Origin: a virus
Reading direction: 5' to 3' (one strand)
UHGV virus genome: UHGV-0351052
DNA: 64,000 nucleotides
The notes below the pieces were generated by a model. That model was not told the origin of the DNA. It saw nothing but the letters and a program-made list of their open reading frames with translations, and did not search any database. Positions within the stretch are counted from its first letter, which is position 1; each line of letters begins with the position of its first letter. Made by a program: the position numbers and the translations under genes. Below, one piece after another: positions 1,850 to 48,333 of this stretch.

Positions 1850-3832
1850 ATGGCAAATACCCCTGTAAATTATCAATTAACAAGAACAGCAAATGCTATT
1901 CCCGAGATATTCGTCGGGGGTACGTTTGCTGAAATAAAACAAAACCTCATTGAATGGCTTAATGGCCAAAATGAATTTTTGGATTATGATTTTGAAGGCT
2001 CAAGATTAAACGTTCTGTGTGACCTTTTGGCTTATAATACGCTGTACATTCAGCAGTTTGGTAATGCTGCTGTATATGAAAGCTTTATGCGTACTGCTAA
2101 CTTACGAAGCTCAGTTGTTCAAGCTGCACAAGATAACGGATATTTACCTACTTCAAAATCCGCTGCGCAAACCGAAATTATGTTAACATGCACCGACGCA
2201 TTGAATAGGAATTACATTACAATTCCTCGCGGAACTCGCTTTTTAGCATATGCAAAAGATACTTCTGTTAATCCATATAACTTCGTTTCTACCGAAGATG
2301 TTATTGCTATTCGTGATAAAAATAACCAGTATTTTCCACGTTTAAAATTAGCCCAAGGACGTATAGTAAGAACTGAAATCATTTATGATAAATTAACACC
2401 TATTATCATTTATGACAAAAATATAGATAGAAACCAAGTTAAGCTGTATGTTGATGGAGCAGAATGGATTAACTGGACAAGAAAGTCAATGGTTCATGCT
2501 GGTTCTACATCAACAATTTACTACATGCGTGAAACTATTGATGGAAATACTGAATTTTATTTTGGTGAAGGTGAGATTTCTGTTAATGCTGCAGAAGGAG
2601 CATTGACTGCTAATTATATTGGAGGTCTTAAACCTACTCAGAACTCTACGATTGTTATTGAGTACATCAGTACTAACGGTGCAGATGCGAATGGCGCAGT
2701 CGGATTTTCATATGCAGATACATTGACAAATATAACTGTCATCAACATTAATGAAAACCCAAATGATGACCCAGATTTTGTTGGAGCAGACGGCGGCGGT
2801 GACCCAGAAGATATTGAGCGTATTCGCGAATTGGGTACTATTAAACGCGAAACCCAGCAACGCTGCGTAACTGCGACTGACTATGATACATTCGTTTCAG
2901 AGAGATTTGGTTCTATTATTCAGGCAGTTCAGACTTTCACTGATTCTACTAAACCTGGGTATGCATTTATTGCTGCTAAACCTAAATCAGGTCTGTATTT
3001 AACTACCGTACAGCGTGAAGATATTAAAAATTATCTCAAAGACTATAATTTAGCTCCTATTACACCATCAATTATTTCTCCTAATTACCTTTTTATTAAG
3101 ACTAATTTAAAAGTCACATATGCTTTAAATAAGCTGCAAGAATCCGAACAGTGGCTCGAAGGTCAAATAATTGATAAAATTGATCGTTATTATACCGAAG
3201 ATGTAGAAATTTTTAACTCATCTTTCGCTAAATCTAAGATGTTGACATATGTAGATGATGCAGATCATTCTATCATTGGCTCATCAGCGACAATTCAAAT
3301 TGTTCGTGAAGTACAAAACTTCTATAAAACGCCTGAAGCAGGTATTAAATACAATAATCAAATAAAAGACCGTTCTATGGAATCTAATACGTTTTCATTT
3401 AATTCTGGACGAAAGGTTGTAAATCCTGATACTGGTTTAGAAGAAGATGTATTATATGACGTTCGCATAGTATCAACAGACCGAAATTCTAAAGGAATTG
3501 GTAAAGTTATTATTGGTCCATTTGCTTCTGGCGATGTTACAGAAAATAAAAACATTCGTCCATATACAGGCAACGATTTTAATAAATTAGCAAATTCTAG
3601 TGGACGCGACAAATACTATGTTATCGGTGAAATAAATTATCCAGCTGATATGATTTATTGGAATATCGCTAAAATTAATTTAACATCCGATAAATTTGAG
3701 GTTCAGACTATTGAATTATATTCTGACCCAACCGATGATGTTATCTTTACCCGTGATGGTTCACTGATTGTATTTGAAAATGATTTACGTCCGCAATACT
3801 TAACTATCGATTTGGAGCCTATATCACAATGA
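1850..3832 (+). CDS. 6: Baseplate wedge subunit gp6
   Basis: 660 aa, size and position as in T4; starts MANTPVNYQLTRTANAIPEIFVGG. Confidence 0.9.
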   Translation: MANTPVNYQLTRTANAIPEIFVGGTFAEIKQNLIEWLNGQNEFLDYDFEGSRLNVLCDLLAYNTLYIQQFGNAAVYESFMRTANLRSSVVQAAQDNGYLPTSKSAAQTEIMLTCTDALNRNYITIPRGTRFLAYAKDTSVNPYNFVSTEDVIAIRDKNNQYFPRLKLAQGRIVRTEIIYDKLTPIIIYDKNIDRNQVKLYVDGAEWINWTRKSMVHAGSTSTIYYMRETIDGNTEFYFGEGEISVNAAEGALTANYIGGLKPTQNSTIVIEYISTNGADANGAVGFSYADTLTNITVININENPNDDPDFVGADGGGDPEDIERIRELGTIKRETQQRCVTATDYDTFVSERFGSIIQAVQTFTDSTKPGYAFIAAKPKSGLYLTTVQREDIKNYLKDYNLAPITPSIISPNYLFIKTNLKVTYALNKLQESEQWLEGQIIDKIDRYYTEDVEIFNSSFAKSKMLTYVDDADHSIIGSSATIQIVREVQNFYKTPEAGIKYNNQIKDRSMESNTFSFNSGRKVVNPDTGLEEDVLYDVRIVSTDRNSKGIGKVIIGPFASGDVTENKNIRPYTGNDFNKLANSSGRDKYYVIGEINYPADMIYWNIAKINLTSDKFEVQTIELYSDPTDDVIFTRDGSLIVFENDLRPQYLTIDLEPISQ

Positions 3833-6800
3833 CAGTAAAAGCACCTTCAGTCACTAGTCTCAGAATTTCCAAGTTATCCGCAAATCAGGTGCAAGTACGC
3901 TGGGATGACGTTGGTGCTAATTTCTACTATTTTGTAGAAATCGCTGAGACAAAAACAGACTCGGGGGAAAATCTCCCGAGTAATCAATACCGATGGATTA
4001 ATTTAGGATATACTGCAAATAACAGCTTCTTTTTTGATGATGCTGATCCATTAACAACATACATTATTAGAGTAGCTACAGCTGCGCAAGATTTTGAGCA
4101 GTCTGATTGGATTTATACCGAAGAGTTTGAAACTTTTGCTACGAATGCTTACACATTTCAAAATATGATTGAAATGCAATTAGCTAATAAATTCATTCAG
4201 GAAAAATTTACTCTTAACAATTCTAATTATGTCAATTTTAATAATGACACTATAATGGCTGCATTGATGAATGAATCGTTTCAATTCAGCCCATCATATG
4301 CTGATGTCTCATCAATCAGTAATTTTATTATTGGCGAAAATGAGTATCATGAAATACAAGGTTCCATTCAGCAAGTGTGTAAGGATATTAACCGAGTTTA
4401 TTTGATGGAATCAGAAGGGATTCTATATCTTTTTGAGCGCTATCAGCCTGTAGTTAAAGTATCTAATGATAAAGGACAAACCTGGAAAGCTGTGAAGCTC
4501 TTCAATGACCGTGTAGGATATCCTTTATCTAAGACAGTATATTACCAATCTGCGAACACAACATACGTTCTAGGATACGACAAGATTTTCTACGGCCGTA
4601 AATCAACTGATGTTAGATGGTCAGCTGATGATGTCAGATTTAGTTCGCAGGATATAACATTTGCTAAACTTGGTGATCAACTTCATTTGGGATTTGATGT
4701 TGAAATCTTTGGTACTTATGCTACATTACCTGCAAATGTATACCGCATTGCAGAAGCTATTACTTGCACCGATGATTACATTTACGTTGTCGCCAGAGAC
4801 AAAGTTAGATACATAAAAACGAGTAATGCACCTATAGATTCTGATCCATTGTCTCCAACATATTCGGAAAGACTTTTTGAACCTGATACAATGACTATAA
4901 CCGGAAATCCTAAAGCAGTATGCTATAAAATGGATTCTATCGGTGATAAAGTTTTTGCTCTTATTATTGGTGAAGTTGAAACATTAAATGCTAATCCTAG
5001 AACATCAAAAATAATTGATTCTGCTGATAAAGGAATATATGTTTTAAATCATGACACGAAAACATGGAAAAGAGTTTTTGGCAACACTGAAGAAGAAAGA
5101 AGACGTATTCAACCTGGATATGCGAATATGTCAACTGATGGTAAATTAGTTTCTCTGTCTTCGAGTAATTTTAAATTTTTAAGTGATAACGTTGTTAATG
5201 ACCCTGAAACTGCAGCGAAATATCAGTTAATCGGTGCTGTTAAATATGAATTTCCTCGTGAATGGCTAGCCGATAAGCATTATCATATGATGGCATTTAT
5301 AGCAGATGAAAAATCTGATTGGGAAACTTTTACGCCTCAACCGATGAAATATTATGCAGAACCATTCTTTAACTGGTCTAAAAAATCTAACACACGTTGT
5401 TGGATAAACAACTCTGACAGAGCTGTAGTAGTTTATGCTGATTTAAAATACACTAAAGTTATAGAAAATATTCCGGAAACATCGCCAGATAGATTAGTTC
5501 ATGAATACTGGGATGATGGTGATTGTACGATAGTAATGCCAAATGTTAAATTCACAGGATTTAAAAAATATGCGTCTGGGATGCTTTTTTATAAATCTTC
5601 TGGTGAAATAATTTCTTACTATGATTTTAACTATCGAGTGAGAGACACGGTTGAAATAATTTGGAAGCCAACTGGAATATTTTTAAAAGCATTTTTACAA
5701 AACCAAGAGCGTGAAACTCCTTGGTCACCAGAAGAAGAGCATGGATTAGCTGACCCTGATTTAAGACCATTGATTGGCACAATGATGCCTGATTCTTATT
5801 TACTACAAGATTCGAATTTTGAGGCATTTTGCGAAGCATATATTCAGTATCTTTCTGATGGATATGGAACTCAGTATAACAATTTACGAAATTTAATTCG
5901 TAATCAGTATCCACGAGAAGAGCATGCATGGGAATATTTGTGGTCAGAGATATATAAAAGAAACATTTATTTGAACGCGGATAAGCGAGATGCTGTAGCA
6001 AGATTTTTTGAATCACGTAGCTATGATTTTTATTCTACTAAAGGAATTGAAGCATCATACAAGTTTCTTTTTAAAGTTCTTTATAATGAAGAAGTTGAAA
6101 TTGAAATTGAATCTGGGGCTGGTACTGAATATGACATAATCGTTCAATCTGATTCTTTGACTGAAGATTTAGTAGGACAAACGATTTATACAGCCACAGG
6201 AAGATGTAATGTTACTTATATAGAAAGAAGCTATTCTAATGGTAAATTGCAATGGACCGTAACTATTCATAATCTTTTGGGAAGATTAATTGCTGGTCAA
6301 GAAGTTAAAGCAGAAAGACTCCCTAGTTTTGAAGGCGAAATTATTCGTGGAGTTAAAGGAAAGGATTTGCTTCAAAACAATATAGACTATATTAATAGAA
6401 GTAGATCATACTATGTAATGAAAATTAAATCCAATTTACCTTCTTCCCGCTGGAAATCTGACGTTATTCGTTTTGTTCATCCAGTAGGATTTGGATTTAT
6501 AGCAATTACCCTTTTAACGATGTTTATTAATGTTGGTTTAACTCTTAAACATACAGAGACTATAATTAATAAATACAAAAACTATAAATGGGATTCTGGA
6601 TTGCCTACTGAATATGCTGATAGAGTAGCTAAATTAACTCCAACCGGTGAAATTGAGCATGATTCAGTAACAGGCGAAGCAATTTATGAGCCTGGCCCAA
6701 TGGCTGGTGTAGAATATCCTCTTCCTAATGACTATAATGCTGAAAATAATAATTCAATATTTCAAGGTCAATTGCCTTCTGAACGACGCAAGTTAATGAG

Positions 6801-41172: not shown

Positions 41173-42137
41173 TGTATTCTTTAGAGGAATTTAATAACCA
41201 AGCAATAAACGCAGACTTCCAACGTAATAATATGTTTAGCTGCGTTTTTGCAACAACTCCATCAACTAAAAGCTCTTCGTTGATAAGTTCAATTAGCAAC
41301 TTTTCTTATAATAACTTGGGCCTAAATTCAAATTGGTTAGGATTAACTCAAGGTGATATTAATCAGGGAATTACCACGCTAATTACAGCTGGCACACAAA
41401 AACTGATAAGAAAATCAGGGGTTAGTAAATATCTTATTGGTGCCATGAGTCAACGTACAGTTCAAAGTTTATTAGGCTCATTCACAGTTGGTACATATTT
41501 AATTGACTTCTTTAACATGGCATATAACTCATCTGGATTGATGATATATTCTGTAAAAATGCCAGAGAACAGATTATCCTATGAAACTGACTGGAACTAT
41601 AATTCTCCTAATATTCGTATAACCGGAAGAGAATTAGATCCTTTGGTTATTTCATTTAGAATGGATTCAGAAGCTTGTAACTATCGTGCAATGCAAGACT
41701 GGGTTAACGCTGTTCAAGACCCAGTAACTGGACTGCGTGCTTTGCCACAAGATGTCGAGGCAGATATTCAGGTTAATCTTCATGCTCGTAATGGATTACC
41801 TCATACTGCAGTGATGTTCACCGGATGCATTCCAATGTCAGTGAGCGCTCCTGAGTTATCATATGATGGAGATAACCAAATAACTACGTTTGATGTTACT
41901 TTTGCGTATAGAGTCATGCAGGCTGGAGCAGTTGATAGACAAGCTGCGCTTGAGTGGCTTGAATCTGCTGCTATAAATGGCATTCAAAGCGTTCTCGGAA
42001 ATAGTGGAGGTGTTACTGGATTATCTAATTCGCTTTCACGACTTAGTAGATTAGGTGGAACTGCTGGAAGCATTTCAAACATTAATACTATGACGGGAAT
42101 TGTCAATTCGCAAAGTAAAATATTAGGAGCAATATAA
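41172..42137 (+). CDS. 54: Baseplate-tail tube initiator gp54
   Basis: 321 aa; order/size as in T4. Confidence 0.9.
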   Translation: MYSLEEFNNQAINADFQRNNMFSCVFATTPSTKSSSLISSISNFSYNNLGLNSNWLGLTQGDINQGITTLITAGTQKLIRKSGVSKYLIGAMSQRTVQSLLGSFTVGTYLIDFFNMAYNSSGLMIYSVKMPENRLSYETDWNYNSPNIRITGRELDPLVISFRMDSEACNYRAMQDWVNAVQDPVTGLRALPQDVEADIQVNLHARNGLPHTAVMFTGCIPMSVSAPELSYDGDNQITTFDVTFAYRVMQAGAVDRQAALEWLESAAINGIQSVLGNSGGVTGLSNSLSRLSRLGGTAGSISNINTMTGIVNSQSKILGAI

Positions 42138-42140
42138 CAA

Positions 42141-42171
42141 TGGGGACCGAAAGGTCCCCATATTTTTATTT
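42141..42171. terminator. Terminator hairpin after gp54 (TGGGGACC-GAAA-GGTCCCCA + T-rich tail)
   Basis: Perfect 8-bp stem with GNRA loop then TATTTTTATTT; marks end of the plus-strand late block. Confidence 0.8.
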
Positions 42172-42456
42172 GCGGAATGAAATGAAAGCAGAAACTGAAG
42201 CAACTAAACTATCTTCAATATAAACTTCAATTTTTACCGGAGCTTCTGACTCAAATTTACCTGTTACTACACCCTGAAAAATACTTTCAGTCTGTTCTGG
42301 CTTTGAAAAATTTTCAGAAGGAAAAATTCCAAACTTTTTATCTGTTCCGAAAATTTTGATAAATTCATCATAAACTGCTTCATTAAAAGCATTATCAGCA
42401 GGAATAACGCCTTCAACTACAAGTTCTTGACCTAAAAAGCGTAAAGAAGATTTCAT
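42166..42456 (-). CDS. Hypothetical protein (first gene of minus-strand block, downstream of promoter-like repeat)
   Basis: 96-aa ORF; GAGGA Shine-Dalgarno 8 nt upstream of ATG within the 54-bp repeat. Confidence 0.6.
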   Translation of the reverse strand: MKSSLRFLGQELVVEGVIPADNAFNEAVYDEFIKIFGTDKKFGIFPSENFSKPEQTESIFQGVVTGKFESEAPVKIEVYIEDSLVASVSAFISFRK

Positions 42457-42463
42457 TTTGTGT

Positions 42464-42517
42464 TCCTCATGTTATGTCAGTAAGACTACTATAACACAAC
42501 ACGAGGGACTTGTAAAC
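42464..42517 (-). promoter_or_regulatory. 54-bp element, copy 1: early-promoter-like (GTTTAC -35, TATAGT -10) plus leader with SD; identical to copy at 57900-57953
   Basis: Minus strand reads GTTTACAAGTCCCTCGTGTTGTGTTATAGTAGTCTTACTGACATAACATGAGGA. Confidence 0.6.
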
Positions 42518-44574
42518 TACATTTTGAACTTTTTAGACATTCCATTGATGTTAACCAAAGAAGCTAAGATTTGAGAAACTTCATTTTCCTCTTCTTTTGA
42601 TTCTTCTACAAGGAATTGATTAAATCCAGCCATTGGACGAACTTCACCAGTTTCCATTAGATGGTCGCCATCATATACTGATTCTTCTAATTGTTCAGAA
42701 GGAGGAACGATTGTACCTTCGATTAGATACTTGTTATAAGCAGTTTCTTTCATAAAGTACGTACTTACTTTATTAATCTTCAGTAAAATTCCACGCGGTA
42801 GAATAACTTCAGCTTCTGATGGAAATCCTGATAAATGACCTGGAACGATAACTTTGATTCGCTCAGCTCCTTTAATTACCATACCCACGCTAGTTTCAGC
42901 ATCTTCATTAGCATATGTAGAATGACTACCCATATGCATCAAATCTTCTGCATCAACAGAACCTTCTCCTTCGCCAGAAAATACTGCACCGGAATCATCT
43001 AGAGCCATATAGTTTTTACCATGCTCACCGAAGATATTTGGTTTAAGCGATGTGGATACGAAGTTCTTGAAATAGAACATTTTGTTTTCAATGTTATGAC
43101 GCAAAGTTTTAAAGGTAACTTCTTGTCCACGATAAAGCGTAGTTCCTGGAGGAAGAACTGAACCTTTAGCGAATGCAGAATCCAACGTCTCGATGTGCTT
43201 AATGGCACGTTCCATATATTCTTCACGGGTAGAATCTGGTTTACCCAAGAGGAACGAGTTCATTTCAACATATGAATCTGCACAATAATCTTCAATTACA
43301 TCAGACTCAGCCTGAGTCAGTCCTTTTGGAGTTACTTCGGTGCTTGCGTATTCATATGCCTGAGCAGCAGATTCATTAATCAATTTATAAATGCCATTCA
43401 TGACAAATTGAATAATAGCTACCTTTTCGTCTGGTGTGGCTTTAGAACCTTTAACTAAATCATTGATAATTTTCTTAATAACATCAAAGCTATTAGAAAT
43501 ATTAATGTCAGCGAGATCGCTTAAAATTTTATCGGTTTTATAATCAAAGAATTCTTTATTCTTTAAATATTCTTGAGAACCTTGATGTGTTATATCGCTC
43601 TGCAGCCTGATAGACGGATCACGTAAACGCGCATGGGCCAATGCAATATGATTTCGGAAGCTTTCTAGTTCATAATCGTTAGATTTAAAACGAGAGGCAC
43701 TTCTCATACCACCGATAGCTCCTTTGCCGAAGTTTGAACCAATCTGGATAACGCCAGAATTCATTGGTCCTTCTGCTTTATATACCGGAACTTTAGATTC
43801 AAACTCTTGATATTTCTTGGCAGCGAAGCTATCACCCTGAAGTGAAGCATCGACAGTAGAATATTGAGCTTGTGCTGCTAATCGACGACTAATTTTAGTT
43901 TTCTGAATAACCGCTTGGTCAGTACGTTTATCATTTTCTAAAGCAATAGAAGCAGCAACAGCGACAGCTTTAGGAACAGCATTACCTGTTTTAACGTCTA
44001 CATAAACATCACCGACCTTCGATTCAACTTTTGTGAATAACTCAGTTGAAATAGGAGGTACACCTGGAATGTCTTCTAAATTGGCATTTTTACGGTAAAC
44101 CATAATATATGCATACTTTTTATCATAGTCCCAGATTTCCTTTAAAAGAACATAACGACCTGCTCCTTTAGTACGTACTAAACGGTCAGCAATAACTTGC
44201 ATTTGACGAGCAGCTCCATTTGTTTTACTTTTTAGTACGCGGAATAAGCATGCGTCAATTTTATACTGTTTCATTGTTTGAAGAGCAGTATCAAAAACCG
44301 CATTAATGACACCAATTGGATTTCCACCCAAGTTTTTAAGTTTAACTAATGATAGTTTCTCATTAACACCTATCATTACGATATGCATCATTTTATCGCC
44401 TGGCTTAACGTTTTTATTTGTATCACCGCCAGAGGTGTATGTACAAAATCTAAATCCAGGAAGCACGCTTTCTTCACCGGCTTGAATAGCAAAAATTTGA
44501 GGTATTTTATGCTTAGGATTTAAGTTAACAACCGGCGCCGAAGCGCCGTCAAATAATTCTGTAATAAGTTCCAT
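42517..44574 (-). CDS. Alt-like ADP-ribosyltransferase, paralog A (downstream copy)
   Basis: 685 aa; C-terminal region has R (TTLYRGQ), S-T-S (FVSTSL) and E-x-E (SEAEVILPRG) motifs of R-S-E class ADP-ribosyltransferases; N-terminus homologous to paralog B. Confidence 0.85.
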   Translation of the reverse strand: MELITELFDGASAPVVNLNPKHKIPQIFAIQAGEESVLPGFRFCTYTSGGDTNKNVKPGDKMMHIVMIGVNEKLSLVKLKNLGGNPIGVINAVFDTALQTMKQYKIDACLFRVLKSKTNGAARQMQVIADRLVRTKGAGRYVLLKEIWDYDKKYAYIMVYRKNANLEDIPGVPPISTELFTKVESKVGDVYVDVKTGNAVPKAVAVAASIALENDKRTDQAVIQKTKISRRLAAQAQYSTVDASLQGDSFAAKKYQEFESKVPVYKAEGPMNSGVIQIGSNFGKGAIGGMRSASRFKSNDYELESFRNHIALAHARLRDPSIRLQSDITHQGSQEYLKNKEFFDYKTDKILSDLADINISNSFDVIKKIINDLVKGSKATPDEKVAIIQFVMNGIYKLINESAAQAYEYASTEVTPKGLTQAESDVIEDYCADSYVEMNSFLLGKPDSTREEYMERAIKHIETLDSAFAKGSVLPPGTTLYRGQEVTFKTLRHNIENKMFYFKNFVSTSLKPNIFGEHGKNYMALDDSGAVFSGEGEGSVDAEDLMHMGSHSTYANEDAETSVGMVIKGAERIKVIVPGHLSGFPSEAEVILPRGILLKINKVSTYFMKETAYNKYLIEGTIVPPSEQLEESVYDGDHLMETGEVRPMAGFNQFLVEESKEEENEVSQILASLVNINGMSKKFKM

Positions 44575-44577
44575 GAT

Positions 44578-46635
44578 TTATCCTTGAACGAACTTGTAAG
44601 GCATGTTTGCAATATCTATGCAAGATGCAATAATTCCAAGAGATGATTCTACTTTTTGTTTAACATTTGATGAAACAAATGATGCAAAATCAACTCTGTC
44701 TTCTATTTCAATATCACCTGTCATTGCAACTACTTCACCGGTTTCCATTAGACGGTCACCGTCATAAATTACTGATTCGGTGAGTTCTTCTGTAGTCATA
44801 ACTTCAGCTTGAATAAGCTTGTTGTTAGTTTTAGCTGTTCCATCATTGTAAGATGCGTCGGTTATTTTATTGACTTTGACCATCAATCCACGCGGCAAAA
44901 TGACTTCCATTTCATTTGAAGGCGCTAAACTTCCACCTGGTAAAACAACGTTGACTTTATCAGCCCCAGTAATAACCCATCCAATTCCAACTAAATTATC
45001 GCTAGAATTAACAAGTCCTTCATCGTTTTTATCGATAGAAATGTTTAGACGCTTTTCGTCTGGTAAAACACCCACAGCTGAATCAGTCATCCAAGTACCA
45101 AAAATGTTTGGATATAATGATGTTGATACAAAATTTCTAAAATAAAAAACTCGATTTTTTACCAATGCTTCATATATTGAAGGTAACATTCGCTGTGAAC
45201 GATATAAAGTAATACCTTTTGGCAGTCGATCACCATTTTTAAAGGCTGAATCTAAATTATCGATGGCTTGTTCTATTTCTGGTGCTGTTAAAATACTTGT
45301 ACGCTCATCTGGATTATATAATCCCAAAAGAGCATTATTCATGTCTACATATCCTGAACCTACGTATTCACGAATTCCGCGTTTTTGTGCCGGTGTGTAT
45401 TTAGATGAATCTTTATTTTCGACTATAGAATGCAATGACCATCCAACGGTAAGAGCATATCCACGTAATTCTCTTCGAATAATCTTTGTTTTTATTGCGT
45501 TCCAAGAATTTTGCACTAACTCATTCGCAGCATCTTGATTTAAATGCGAATGCTTGTTAATATTTCTTTCTAACCAAGCACCTTTATATTTTTCTAAAGT
45601 ATCATCAACTATAGAAGCAATAGTTTCTAAAGTTTTTATTGAAGTAATAGATTCTTTTCGTAATCTTTCTAAAGCTTTATTTTTTATTTCTGCATTAACA
45701 TCAGATTCTTTATCTTCAGGAATTATAGAAGCTTCTCTGAATGCCATTCCAGCTGTAACACTATTAAGAGCATTCTCTAATGCAAATCCTGAAGTAGAAA
45801 TAACAGTTAATTCGTTAGCATCAGAAATTAAAGGCGCGTCAGCGGGTTTATTTAATTCTGCTGCTGAAGCCTCAAATTTTTGAAACATTGGTGTTTCAAA
45901 TCTAGAAGATTCTAACGATTGACTTTGTGCAATTGCTCTACGGGAAATTTTAACTTTAACGATTACAGCTTGGTCAGAACGTTTATCATTTTCTTGCGCA
46001 ATAGATGCTGCAATTGCCTCGTTTTTAGTTACTTGAGCTCCAGTATCTTTATTGATATAAACATCACCGACCTTCGATTCAACCTTAGTAAAGAGCTCGG
46101 TACTAATTTCCGGAACTCCTGGAATGTCTTCTAGTGATACATTTTTGCGATGTATAAGAATATATGCATACTTTTTATCATAATCCCAGAGTTCCTTAAG
46201 AAGGACGTATCTGCCACCTGAACGACTACGGATAAGTCTATCAGCAATAACTTGAATCTGTCGAGCTTGACCAGCGGTTTTAGACTTAAGAATACGGAGC
46301 ATACAGGCATCAATTTTATACTGACGCATTGTTTGCATTGCAACAGTAAAAACTGAATTGATATAATTAATTGGGCTTGGACCGAGACCTTTTAATTTAG
46401 CAATTGAACCTTTAGCAGTTAATGTAAAAGGAACAATATGCATCATTTTATCGCCCATCTTTAAATCACGATTAGTATCACCTCCAGATGTATAGGTACA
46501 TAAACGAAAGCCTGGTTGTTCAATTGCGTCATCAACATGAACTGAAAAAATTTGCGGTATTTTCTTCTTTGGATTTAAGTTTGTAATTGGAAGAGTAGTA
46601 TCTTCGTCAAATAGTTCTGTAATTAGTTCCATCAT
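44578..46635 (-). CDS. alt: Alt-like ADP-ribosyltransferase, paralog B (upstream copy, behind late promoter)
   Basis: 685 aa; R (ITLYRSQ), FVSTSL and NEMEVILPRG motifs; N-terminus MMELITELFD... conserved with paralog A. Which copy corresponds to canonical alt is not certain. Confidence 0.85.
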   Translation of the reverse strand: MMELITELFDEDTTLPITNLNPKKKIPQIFSVHVDDAIEQPGFRLCTYTSGGDTNRDLKMGDKMMHIVPFTLTAKGSIAKLKGLGPSPINYINSVFTVAMQTMRQYKIDACMLRILKSKTAGQARQIQVIADRLIRSRSGGRYVLLKELWDYDKKYAYILIHRKNVSLEDIPGVPEISTELFTKVESKVGDVYINKDTGAQVTKNEAIAASIAQENDKRSDQAVIVKVKISRRAIAQSQSLESSRFETPMFQKFEASAAELNKPADAPLISDANELTVISTSGFALENALNSVTAGMAFREASIIPEDKESDVNAEIKNKALERLRKESITSIKTLETIASIVDDTLEKYKGAWLERNINKHSHLNQDAANELVQNSWNAIKTKIIRRELRGYALTVGWSLHSIVENKDSSKYTPAQKRGIREYVGSGYVDMNNALLGLYNPDERTSILTAPEIEQAIDNLDSAFKNGDRLPKGITLYRSQRMLPSIYEALVKNRVFYFRNFVSTSLYPNIFGTWMTDSAVGVLPDEKRLNISIDKNDEGLVNSSDNLVGIGWVITGADKVNVVLPGGSLAPSNEMEVILPRGLMVKVNKITDASYNDGTAKTNNKLIQAEVMTTEELTESVIYDGDRLMETGEVVAMTGDIEIEDRVDFASFVSSNVKQKVESSLGIIASCIDIANMPYKFVQG

Positions 46636-46655
46636 ATCCTCTCTAGTGTTTATTC

Positions 46656-46663
46656 TATTTATA
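46656..46663 (-). promoter_or_regulatory. Late promoter box TATAAATA (minus strand) upstream of Alt paralog B
   Basis: Complement of 46656-46663 reads TATAAATA about 20 nt upstream of the ATG. Confidence 0.6.
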
Positions 46664-46685
46664 AAATTAAAGGCCCGAAGGCCTT
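46661..46685 (-). terminator. Terminator hairpin downstream of the gene 30 unit (minus strand)
   Basis: AAGGCC-UUCG-GGCCUU followed by T-rich tract on minus strand. Confidence 0.6.
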
Positions 46686-46873
46686 TAGTAATCTAGTGGT
46701 AAGAGAGTACGATATATTTCAAACTTTGGACCTTTTTCATAGGCATCAAATGTTTCTGTGAATTTATTATAAGCATATGCATCTACAAATTCGAGAATGA
46801 CTTGTGATACAGAAGTAGAAACATCTCCACCTTCTTTTTGAGCAATGACAATTGTTTCTAAGTAAGCTTTCAT
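46685..46873 (-). CDS. Small hypothetical protein translationally coupled to DNA ligase gene
   Basis: 62-aa ORF; ATG overlaps gp30 stop (ATGA). Confidence 0.55.
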   Translation of the reverse strand: MKAYLETIVIAQKEGGDVSTSVSQVILEFVDAYAYNKFTETFDAYEKGPKFEIYRTLLPLDY

Positions 46874-48333
46874 AAACCAGTTACCTCATGAAAATCACCA
46901 AATACATCTTCGAACGTATTAGCTTTAGTTTTATCTTCGCGTAAACGAATCGCAATCGGAAGAAATAATTTAACGTAATCAGTGCGGCCATCAGATTTTA
47001 ACCAACCGTTGCATTCGCACTCTAGAATTTTTCCAATATAATAATTTTGGTTTTCCATAATGCGAGTACGGTCAAGTTCATGCGATTTTACACCGGCTTT
47101 ATCTTTTAAGCCTGAACCAGCATTTACTTTAATTTTTCCACATTCTGATTCAAGAATAAATCCACCCGCTTTAGTAGGGTCTTTGCGGTGAGGATAAATT
47201 CCTACAATTTTTAAATCAACATCAATTACTTCTTTAAATTTATAGAGATTTTTTGAACGAGCATTTTCCCATAATCCATCGATATTTTTGAGAATAATAC
47301 CTTCAAGACCTTGGTCAATATACTTTTTATAAATTACCTTAGCTTCATCTAGGTTATTTACTACCTGGTTTTCAATTAAAATTACTTTATCATATCCTGA
47401 TGTCATTTGTTCTAGTTTAGAAAAACGTACATCATATTTTAAACGAAACGCTGGAAGACCGTATATTTCTACCAACGGGACATAATCCCAGACCTGAAAC
47501 TTCATGCATTGAGCTTCTTTTTCAGAAATGGTTCCCTTTAAAGATTTATTGGCGATTCCATTAGAAGTAGTACGAGATTCCGCTACTTCGGCGAATTCTT
47601 TAGCTTTACTAATTTCAGGATAAGCATCAAAAAGAAAATCTAGGCCTTCTGGTTCCTTTTTAACTTGCTCATGGTATACCAATTCGCCATCAATTAACAC
47701 ACCTTCTGGATGAATCTGGCGGGCTTCAGCAGTCATTTTGATTAATTCTTCCTTAAGAAGATCTAATCCTAGATATTCATTACCAGCTCGTGATAAAAGA
47801 CGAACATCATCTAATTCATCGCCTCGGACTTCAGCAAAACACCGGGCTCCATCTGCTTTTAACTGTGCAAAGGCTGGAAATTTGATATTCTTACTAATGC
47901 CTTTTTCATCATAAGAACTTGCCAGCATTTGAGGTTGTTCAGGAATTAAACCTGGCCAAACTTTGTTTGCAATAGATACTGAAGCACCGCATTCAAGATC
48001 TCGCATCATCACTCGACGCAAAACTTCAACATCATCCTTTTTACCATCAGTGATATATCCAGTTAATTCCTCAATTGCAGCATTTCCAGTCAATTTCCGA
48101 GTAGCTAACGTGAATTCAATGAAGTCAAGCATATCGGTAATAGTCAGCATTCCAAAACTCTGGGTAGCAATACCAGGTTTAGGCCATTTCTTGATATAAT
48201 ACTGCAACCCACGAGAATAAGTTAGACGATATACTCGTTTAAGCAATTCATTATCTTTATTCTTTTCAAGAATTGCTTGCTTCTGCTTAGTTGAACCAAT
48301 AGATGCTATTTCGTTCAGAATTTTAAGAATCAT
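46870..48333 (-). CDS. 30: ATP-dependent DNA ligase gp30
   Basis: 487 aa; begins MILKILNEIASIGSTKQKQAILEKNKDNELLKRVY, adenylation motif in AQLKADGARC; matches T4 DNA ligase. Confidence 0.95.
   Translation of the reverse strand: MILKILNEIASIGSTKQKQAILEKNKDNELLKRVYRLTYSRGLQYYIKKWPKPGIATQSFGMLTITDMLDFIEFTLATRKLTGNAAIEELTGYITDGKKDDVEVLRRVMMRDLECGASVSIANKVWPGLIPEQPQMLASSYDEKGISKNIKFPAFAQLKADGARCFAEVRGDELDDVRLLSRAGNEYLGLDLLKEELIKMTAEARQIHPEGVLIDGELVYHEQVKKEPEGLDFLFDAYPEISKAKEFAEVAESRTTSNGIANKSLKGTISEKEAQCMKFQVWDYVPLVEIYGLPAFRLKYDVRFSKLEQMTSGYDKVILIENQVVNNLDEAKVIYKKYIDQGLEGIILKNIDGLWENARSKNLYKFKEVIDVDLKIVGIYPHRKDPTKAGGFILESECGKIKVNAGSGLKDKAGVKSHELDRTRIMENQNYYIGKILECECNGWLKSDGRTDYVKLFLPIAIRLREDKTKANTFEDVFGDFHEVTGL

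Follow-up and report, generated by a model that had tools for sequence, protein, structure and literature searches.

A two-gene alt operon in a Tequatrovirus genome segment with a conserved second Alt-family ADP-ribosyltransferase

Two adjacent alt genes and their transcription signals

We analyzed a 64,000-nucleotide stretch of the virus genome UHGV-0351052 (the window; GC content ~35%), which was identified as a segment of a Tequatrovirus (T4-like) genome and which contains a tandem pair of genes encoding Alt-family ADP-ribosyltransferases (ARTs). The two open reading frames (ORFs), AltA (44578-46635) and AltB (42517-44574), follow each other head to tail on the minus strand and are separated by 3 nucleotides (nt). 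The initial annotation had described them as two adjacent ORFs of 685 amino acids (aa) each, a length that stands for AltB. The AltA ORF opens with ATGATG (46630-46635), and because the spacing of its GAGG Shine-Dalgarno sequence and related annotations fit the second ATG (46632), this codon is the probable start, giving a protein of 684 aa as annotated in Shigella phage pSs-1; 685 aa is the less likely length for AltA. The gene order around the pair corresponds gene for gene to that of T4, with genes 29, 48 and 54 on the plus strand and alt.-3 (DUF5498), the two large ORFs, alt.1 (Pfam Phage_blade) and the DNA ligase gene 30 on the minus strand. The closest record for positions 42100-46900 is phage pSs-1 (97.8% nucleotide identity, 100% coverage). 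The two genes and their parts are as follows.

44578-46635, minus strand: AltA, ortholog of T4 Alt (96% aa identity)
45916-46635, minus strand: AltA N-terminal module, ~240 aa, Pfam PF26846 Tevenvirinae_ADPRT in precomputed matches
45199-45201, 45118-45126 and 44905-44913, minus strand: AltA catalytic residues R479, S504-T-S506 and E575-M-E577
46615-46623 and 44776-44784, minus strand: AltA motifs ITE and LTE for the prohead protease gp21
42517-44574, minus strand: AltB, second full-length Alt-family ART, intact counterpart of the remnant alt.-1/alt.-2 in T4
43861-44574, minus strand: AltB N-terminal module, aa 1-238, including the propeptide MELITE and the gp21 motif ITE (44557-44565)
43330-43860, minus strand: AltB central helical region, aa 239-415, lineage-specific
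42715-43329, minus strand: AltB ART catalytic domain, aa 416-620
43129-43131, 43048-43056 and 42808-42816, minus strand: AltB catalytic residues R482, S507-T-S509 and E587-A-E589
42823-42825, minus strand: AltB F584, position -3 of the ARTT loop
42520-42690, minus strand: AltB predicted gp21 site LEE629-631 (42682-42690) and C-terminal propeptide aa 632-685, aligning with LTE-619 of T4 Alt and its 63-residue propeptide

The pair is preceded by a late promoter motif, TATAAATA, which lies 21-24 nt upstream of the AltA start and directly after a terminator hairpin (46687-46668); T4 alt is preceded by the identical motif in the equivalent place. As proposed in the initial annotation, the motif is found ahead of the upstream copy only: a scan of the minus strand of the region detected no TATAAATA between or within the two genes, and neither a promoter nor a terminator-like site was found at the AltA-AltB junction in the region scanned. 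At this junction the AltA stop codon TAA is followed by 3 nt and the ATG of AltB, with the AltB Shine-Dalgarno sequence placed within the final codons of AltA. The first minus-strand terminator-like site downstream of the late promoter is a hairpin at 42161-42140. In the most likely reading, one late promoter drives a two-gene alt operon, and alt.-3 is probably carried on the same late transcript.

46668-46687, minus strand: intrinsic terminator hairpin AAAGGCCTTCGGGCCTTT with T-run, ending upstream gene 30/alt.1 transcripts just ahead of the alt late promoter
46656-46663, minus strand: T4-type late promoter TATAAATA, single minus-strand occurrence within 42100-47000
44581-44585, minus strand: Shine-Dalgarno sequence AAGGA of AltB
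42166-42456, minus strand: alt.-3 homolog (DUF5498, 96 aa), last gene ahead of the terminator
42140-42161, no strand assigned: bidirectional terminator hairpin between gene 54 (plus) and alt.-3 (minus)

A sigma-70-like site (TTTACA, 17 nt, TATAGT, with TG) is present on the minus strand at 42516-42488, between the AltB stop codon and alt.-3, and may represent an early promoter for alt.-3. Sigma-70-like sites are no more numerous in the region than in shuffled sequence.

Catalytic residues and prohead protease motifs

Both proteins belong to the PF03496 (ADPrib_exo_Tox) family, with scores of 71.5 bits (AltB) and 117.9 bits (AltA) against a gathering cut-off of 23.4 bits. The sequence motifs on which the initial annotation was based (MELITELFD, NLNPK.KIPQIF, CTYTSGGDTN, TLYRG/TLYRS, FVSTSL and SEAEV/NEMEV) are all present, the R, S-T-S and ExE motifs occur in the correct order in AltA and AltB, and the alignment confirmed that neither copy has lost a catalytic residue. 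R482, S507, S509, E587 and E589 of AltB do not vary among 24 homologs drawn from both lineages. A structure model of AltB (predicted local distance difference test score, pLDDT, of 75) shows the ART fold and matches Vis, C3, Certhrax, iota-like toxins and VIP2. Full-length AltB gave no match at E <= 0.01 in a phmmer search against PDB sequences, and the C-terminal half of AltA gave weak matches to CdtA, sufficient for mapping the R and ExE motifs; in the CdtA alignment, the TLYR and ExE of Alt fall on the catalytic motifs of the toxin. No Alt structure is deposited in the PDB, and NCBIfam contains no model that matches AltA or AltB. The family phrog_802 covers residues 1-685 of both proteins, and cluster representatives 99% identical to AltB carry precomputed PF26846 Tevenvirinae_ADPRT and PF03496 matches. 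AltA and AltB therefore have the N-terminal Tevenvirinae domain and the ART domain of the T4 Alt family over their full length, and they occupy the conserved locus of the family, which has a late promoter and is flanked by gene 30/alt.1 on one side and alt.-3/gene 54 on the other.

The Alt proteins have the fold of the catalytic domain and the R, STS and ExE motifs in common with the C3 exoenzyme/Vis/iota-Ia/CDTa/VIP2 group (PF03496), where ExE marks specificity for arginine, as it does in Vis, iota and VIP2. These toxins differ from Alt in their delivery, which occurs by a binding component or a secretion system; in the Alt proteins the catalytic domain is delivered by the phage capsid via a Tevenvirinae-specific N-terminal module with protease-removed propeptides. 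RNA polymerase alpha Arg265 is on record as ADP-ribosylated by T4 Alt only, and with its 96% identity to T4 Alt, AltA plausibly has the same target. ADP-ribosylation activity has been established for T4 Alt only (PMC11404850; PMC9503650), which modifies RNA polymerase alpha and other proteins (PMC9503650) and is inactivated by the mutation E577A, which abolishes ADP-ribosylation (PMC11404850). After a numbering offset of one residue, the published E577 is the second Glu of ExE and corresponds to E577 of the AltA ORF and E589 of AltB. The published numbering agrees with that of the longer ORF and not with the 682-aa RefSeq protein.

T4 Alt is a prohead-core protein of ~40 copies which is injected along with the DNA (PMC9026906). 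By mass spectrometry, gp21 was shown to cut off the first six residues at ITE-6 and the last 63 at LTE-619 (PMC5694885). Both motifs are present at the T4 positions in AltA, and in AltB ITE 4-6 and LEE 629-631 align with the T4 sites; E6 and E631 of AltB are invariant in the homolog alignment. The predicted mature AltB comprises residues 7-631 (69.1 kDa) and the predicted mature AltA is ~68 kDa. The conserved gp21 motifs in AltB support, without proving, the idea of the initial annotation that AltA and AltB are both packaged and injected.

The T4 remnant, two Alt lineages and natural hybrids

AltA resembles T4 Alt (gpAlt, NP_049811), the head-packaged NAD+:arginine mono-ADP-ribosyltransferase, in its position between alt.1/gene 30 and gene 54, its late promoter and its gp21 motifs. 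AltB is built like T4 Alt and has in common with it an N-terminal module (68% identity), the R-S-ExE residues and the two cleavage motifs, but differs from it in overall identity (41%), in a central region of 177 aa that cannot be aligned (13%), in the ART domain (37%) and in an ARTT aromatic residue that is absent from AltA. What T4 has at the position of AltB are alt.-1 and alt.-2 (NP_049810, NP_049809), which correspond to the first 350 nt of the AltB gene. T4 NC_000866 5066-5451 aligns nearly base for base with AltB codons 1-117 (window 44220-44574); a deletion of 1 bp in T4 creates the alt.-1 stop and the alt.-2 restart, and after codon ~117 the T4 sequence breaks off into the sequence just upstream of alt.-3, with a loss of ~1.7 kb. 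Two families about as long as alt.-1 and alt.-2, phrog_23015 and phrog_15247, match residues 1-56 and 62-117 of AltB. In the T4 annotation, alt.-1/alt.-2 are already traced to an old duplication in which the beginning of alt was copied. AltB is the intact form of the gene left in T4 as alt.-1/alt.-2, broken and truncated there and intact at 685 codons here.

The tandem pair is already known as a genomic feature and is not novel, since it has been annotated in JS98 and in RefSeq and was published in 2006 and 2014. The literature found on a second alt copy consists of mentions in genome comparisons: Nolan et al. (2006) listed paralogs of alt, among them T4 alt.-1/alt.-2 and a second full-length copy in 44RR (PMC1524935), and Jin et al. 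(2014) reported an Alt duplication in Ac42, JS98 and Bp7 (PMC4177764). In JS98 (Dhakavirus), alta and altb have the same tandem arrangement and synteny as here, and altb is the cross-genus ortholog of AltB (~50% identity). RefSeq Tequatrovirus records list an 'Alt-like RNA polymerase ADP-ribosyltransferase' twice, for example gp209/gp210 of pSs-1, whose AltB is >99% identical in protein to the one described here. Neither the JS98 genes nor the RefSeq pairs differ essentially from the pair in the window. The two-gene stretch is present at >=80% in one piece in 384 of the 504 matching phage records, many of which are annotated with two Alt-like ADP-ribosyltransferases, and 402 phage records contain the AltB-specific 446 aa at an identity of 95% or more. 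The ratio of nonsynonymous to synonymous substitution rates (dN/dS) of AltB is 0.013-0.041, at a synonymous divergence (dS) of 0.14-0.30, against three Tequatrovirus orthologs, with all sub-regions at or below 0.10 and the ART domain at ~0.03; against JS98 altb it is 0.19. AltB is therefore under strong purifying selection and is not decaying.

This disposes of the reading of the downstream copy as a decaying pseudogene or a duplication artefact of the assembly. That the locus can decay is demonstrated by T4 itself, but the ORF is intact, its dN/dS values and prevalence rule out a pseudogene, and the same intact gene occurs in ~400 independently sequenced phages. A collapsed or duplicated assembly does not apply either, because the DNA identity between the two copies is only 55%. 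We consider the chance of this explanation to be practically nil, and the suggestion of the initial annotation that the downstream copy is intact holds.

End to end, AltA and AltB are 41-42% identical (BLASTP E = 1e-162). A pairwise alignment per domain, which the initial annotation had put forward as a check, and the comparison with the JS98 orthologs gave the following aa identities.

N-terminal, 1-238: AltA vs AltB 68%; AltB vs JS98 altb 46%; AltA vs JS98 alta 47%
Central, 239-415: AltA vs AltB 13%; AltB vs JS98 altb 43%; AltA vs JS98 alta 25%
ART, 416-625: AltA vs AltB 37%; AltB vs JS98 altb 59%; AltA vs JS98 alta 56%
C-terminal tail: AltA vs AltB 42%; AltB vs JS98 altb 59%; AltA vs JS98 alta 52%

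In windows of 40 columns the identity between AltA and AltB is 12-30% throughout columns 241-480, in agreement with the ~250 diverged central residues noted initially, and the ART domain is strongly diverged as well. The pattern of identities indicates that the effector halves represent two old orthologous lineages that predate the Tequatrovirus/Dhakavirus split, rather than one protein with a drifted middle. At position -3 from the first Glu in the ARTT loop, all B-lineage sequences seen have F or Y (F584 in AltB), and the AltA proteins of the T4 type, the REP3 type and JS98 have P, I or H (P572 in AltA). An aromatic residue at this position contributes to substrate recognition in C3 and iota toxins.

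The N-terminal modules behave differently from the rest of the protein, which follows normal orthology. Paralogs within a genome are 68% identical here (window 43861-44574 and 45916-46635) and 65% identical in JS98 (L003, 1142-5356), so that cross-genus orthologs, at 46-47%, are less alike than paralogs. This pattern suggests past homogenization or co-evolution with a shared (capsid) partner. Recent gene conversion of the N-terminus was ruled out: dS between the paralog modules is 1.29, which is near saturation (1.6-1.7 for the rest), and the constraint there is selective (dN/dS 0.22). Because of this dS value the homogenization was not recent, and an older homogenization or co-evolution is likely. 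The structure model of the AltB N-terminal module (pLDDT 84) has an alpha/beta fold with weak GNAT-like matches. A GNAT acetyltransferase fold for the shared module was considered and not supported, as the combination of a strong structural match and an acetyl-CoA binding motif was not found. In Aeromonas phage phiAS4 (L006, 2513-5396) there are three adjacent Alt-like ORFs of 298, 534 and 115 aa, suggesting split or decayed copies in Tulanevirus; as its alt region consists of three fragment ORFs, phiAS4 was left out of the comparison for concerted evolution.

AltA is itself dimorphic within Tequatrovirus. The T4-type central region (window 44791-45915, central and ART) occurs in ~175 records. 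The other allele encodes 697 aa, for example in REP3 and bov10K1 (L004 and L005, 687-2780), and compared to T4-type AltA its N-terminal 240 aa are identical, with 34% identity in the central region, 67% in the ART domain and 93% in the tail. This allele looks like a swapped effector cassette.

The homology search also returned four clusters (P0003 to P0006) that are AltA-like at the N-terminus and AltB-like thereafter. In the three that were looked up (P0003, P0005 and P0006), each metagenome contig carries a single alt gene, which is flanked by alt.1 and alt.-3 or, on L008, a truncated contig, comes directly after alt.1. Breakpoints were mapped by informative-site tracks.

L007, 4001-6055: hybrid, breakpoint at codon ~183
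L008, 4001-6061: hybrid, breakpoint at codon ~222
L009, 4001-6061: hybrid, breakpoint at codon ~50
L010, Yersinia phage PST (cultured isolate, finished genome), 2781-4841: hybrid, breakpoint at codons 99-103

The hybrids on contigs show clean single breakpoints at microhomologies of 8-27 nt. The longest exact word common to AltA and AltB is 27 nt, and the L007 junction, lying within this word, is the only one among the hybrids that could be an artefact. For the hybrids as a group, an assembly artefact is countered by the junction microhomology of only ~8-10 nt in L008 and L009 and by the same structure in the finished PST genome. The hybrid genes therefore point to unequal recombination between the tandem copies, which recurrently deletes one unit and leaves an in-frame AltA(N)::AltB(C) gene. 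It follows that one N-terminal module can stand in for the other and that phages can do without the AltA effector half, and that, through such a collapse, the only 'alt' of PST carries the AltB effector. The T4 remnant in turn indicates that AltB is dispensable.

Proposed role of AltB and alternative explanations

We propose that the locus is a T4-like two-gene alt operon in which AltB is an old, separately conserved paralog that is packaged and injected like T4 Alt and probably has other targets; we put the probability of this reading at about 0.75. Each protein would consist of three parts: an N-terminal propeptide with the shared module of ~238 aa, a lineage-specific helical region followed by the R-S-E(xE) ART domain, and a C-terminal propeptide. 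One late transcript would encode both proteins, which would enter the prohead core through the shared N-terminal module, in analogy to T4 Alt, where gp21 would trim both ends, after ITE-6 and after LxE at ~620 (AltA) or 631 (AltB). AltA and AltB would then be injected together with the DNA and would mono-ADP-ribosylate host proteins at arginine residues, AltA acting as T4 Alt does (on RNA polymerase alpha and others, PMC9503650) and AltB on a probably different set. Given how far the effector halves have diverged, AltA and AltB probably have separate sets of targets or sets that overlap only in part. Gene structure, homology, conservation of catalytic residues and cleavage motifs, purifying selection, operon layout and modularity were computed here; for AltB we infer the steps from packaging onward, namely packaging, processing, activity and target divergence. 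A further-reaching version, which we hold tentatively and at somewhat below even odds, is that AltB is a second capsid-delivered arginine ADP-ribosyltransferase with targets of its own (for example a defence or translation factor, not RNA polymerase alpha) and that the N-terminal 238-aa module is a generic, exchangeable delivery cassette behind which AltB, the two AltA alleles and the A::B hybrids swap.

Several observations weigh against the proposal that AltB is an injected enzyme with other targets. T4 lacks AltB and still grows well, and the effector half of AltA is missing from PST-type hybrids, so that each effector is individually dispensable, as redundancy would also predict. The searchable literature yielded neither virion proteomics nor enzymology for AltB. 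The ARTT aromatic residue, read by analogy with the C3 and iota toxins, is only a lead towards differing targets. Having no promoter of its own, AltB depends for its level on read-through and on its own Shine-Dalgarno sequence.

The dispensability of either effector half in nature, with B lost in T4 and the AltA effector lost in PST-type hybrids, and the family, catalytic motifs, operon and packaging signals that AltA and AltB have in common would fit AltB being a redundant Alt duplicate with the same targets (for example RNA polymerase alpha), kept for dosage or backup. Simple redundancy, however, rarely preserves a divergence such as that observed here: the lineages have been distinct since before the Tequatrovirus/Dhakavirus split, ART domains and central regions are far less alike between paralogs than between orthologs (37% against 56-59%, and 13% against 25-43%), AltA and AltB are both under purifying selection and the ARTT loop is lineage-specific. 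We therefore regard redundancy as unlikely. AltB could also be expressed without being an injected enzyme, either as a structural part of the prohead core in which the ART activity is irrelevant or as an unpackaged late cytoplasmic enzyme. Alt has been credited with a core-protein role too (PMC11404850), and the best-conserved part common to the paralogs is the non-catalytic N-terminal module; set against this, the catalytic residues are invariant, the ART domain is under the strong constraint given above and both gp21 motifs flanking mature T4 Alt are conserved, which makes this explanation decidedly improbable, more so than redundancy.

The gene pair as such is ordinary for Tequatrovirus. 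T4, the model for phage ADP-ribosylation, holds only a stump of the gene for a probable second injected enzyme, and ~80% of its sequenced relatives retain the AltB gene under strong constraint. If the further-reaching version is true, most natural T-even phages inject AltB, and 'alteration' has been studied in a naturally deficient laboratory T4. If AltB has its own targets, it would be an uncharacterized effector of host takeover or counter-defence acting in the first minute of infection in phages widely used for therapy, and the interchangeable N-terminal module would then offer a design rule, taken from nature, by which enzymes can be loaded into capsids of the T4 type.

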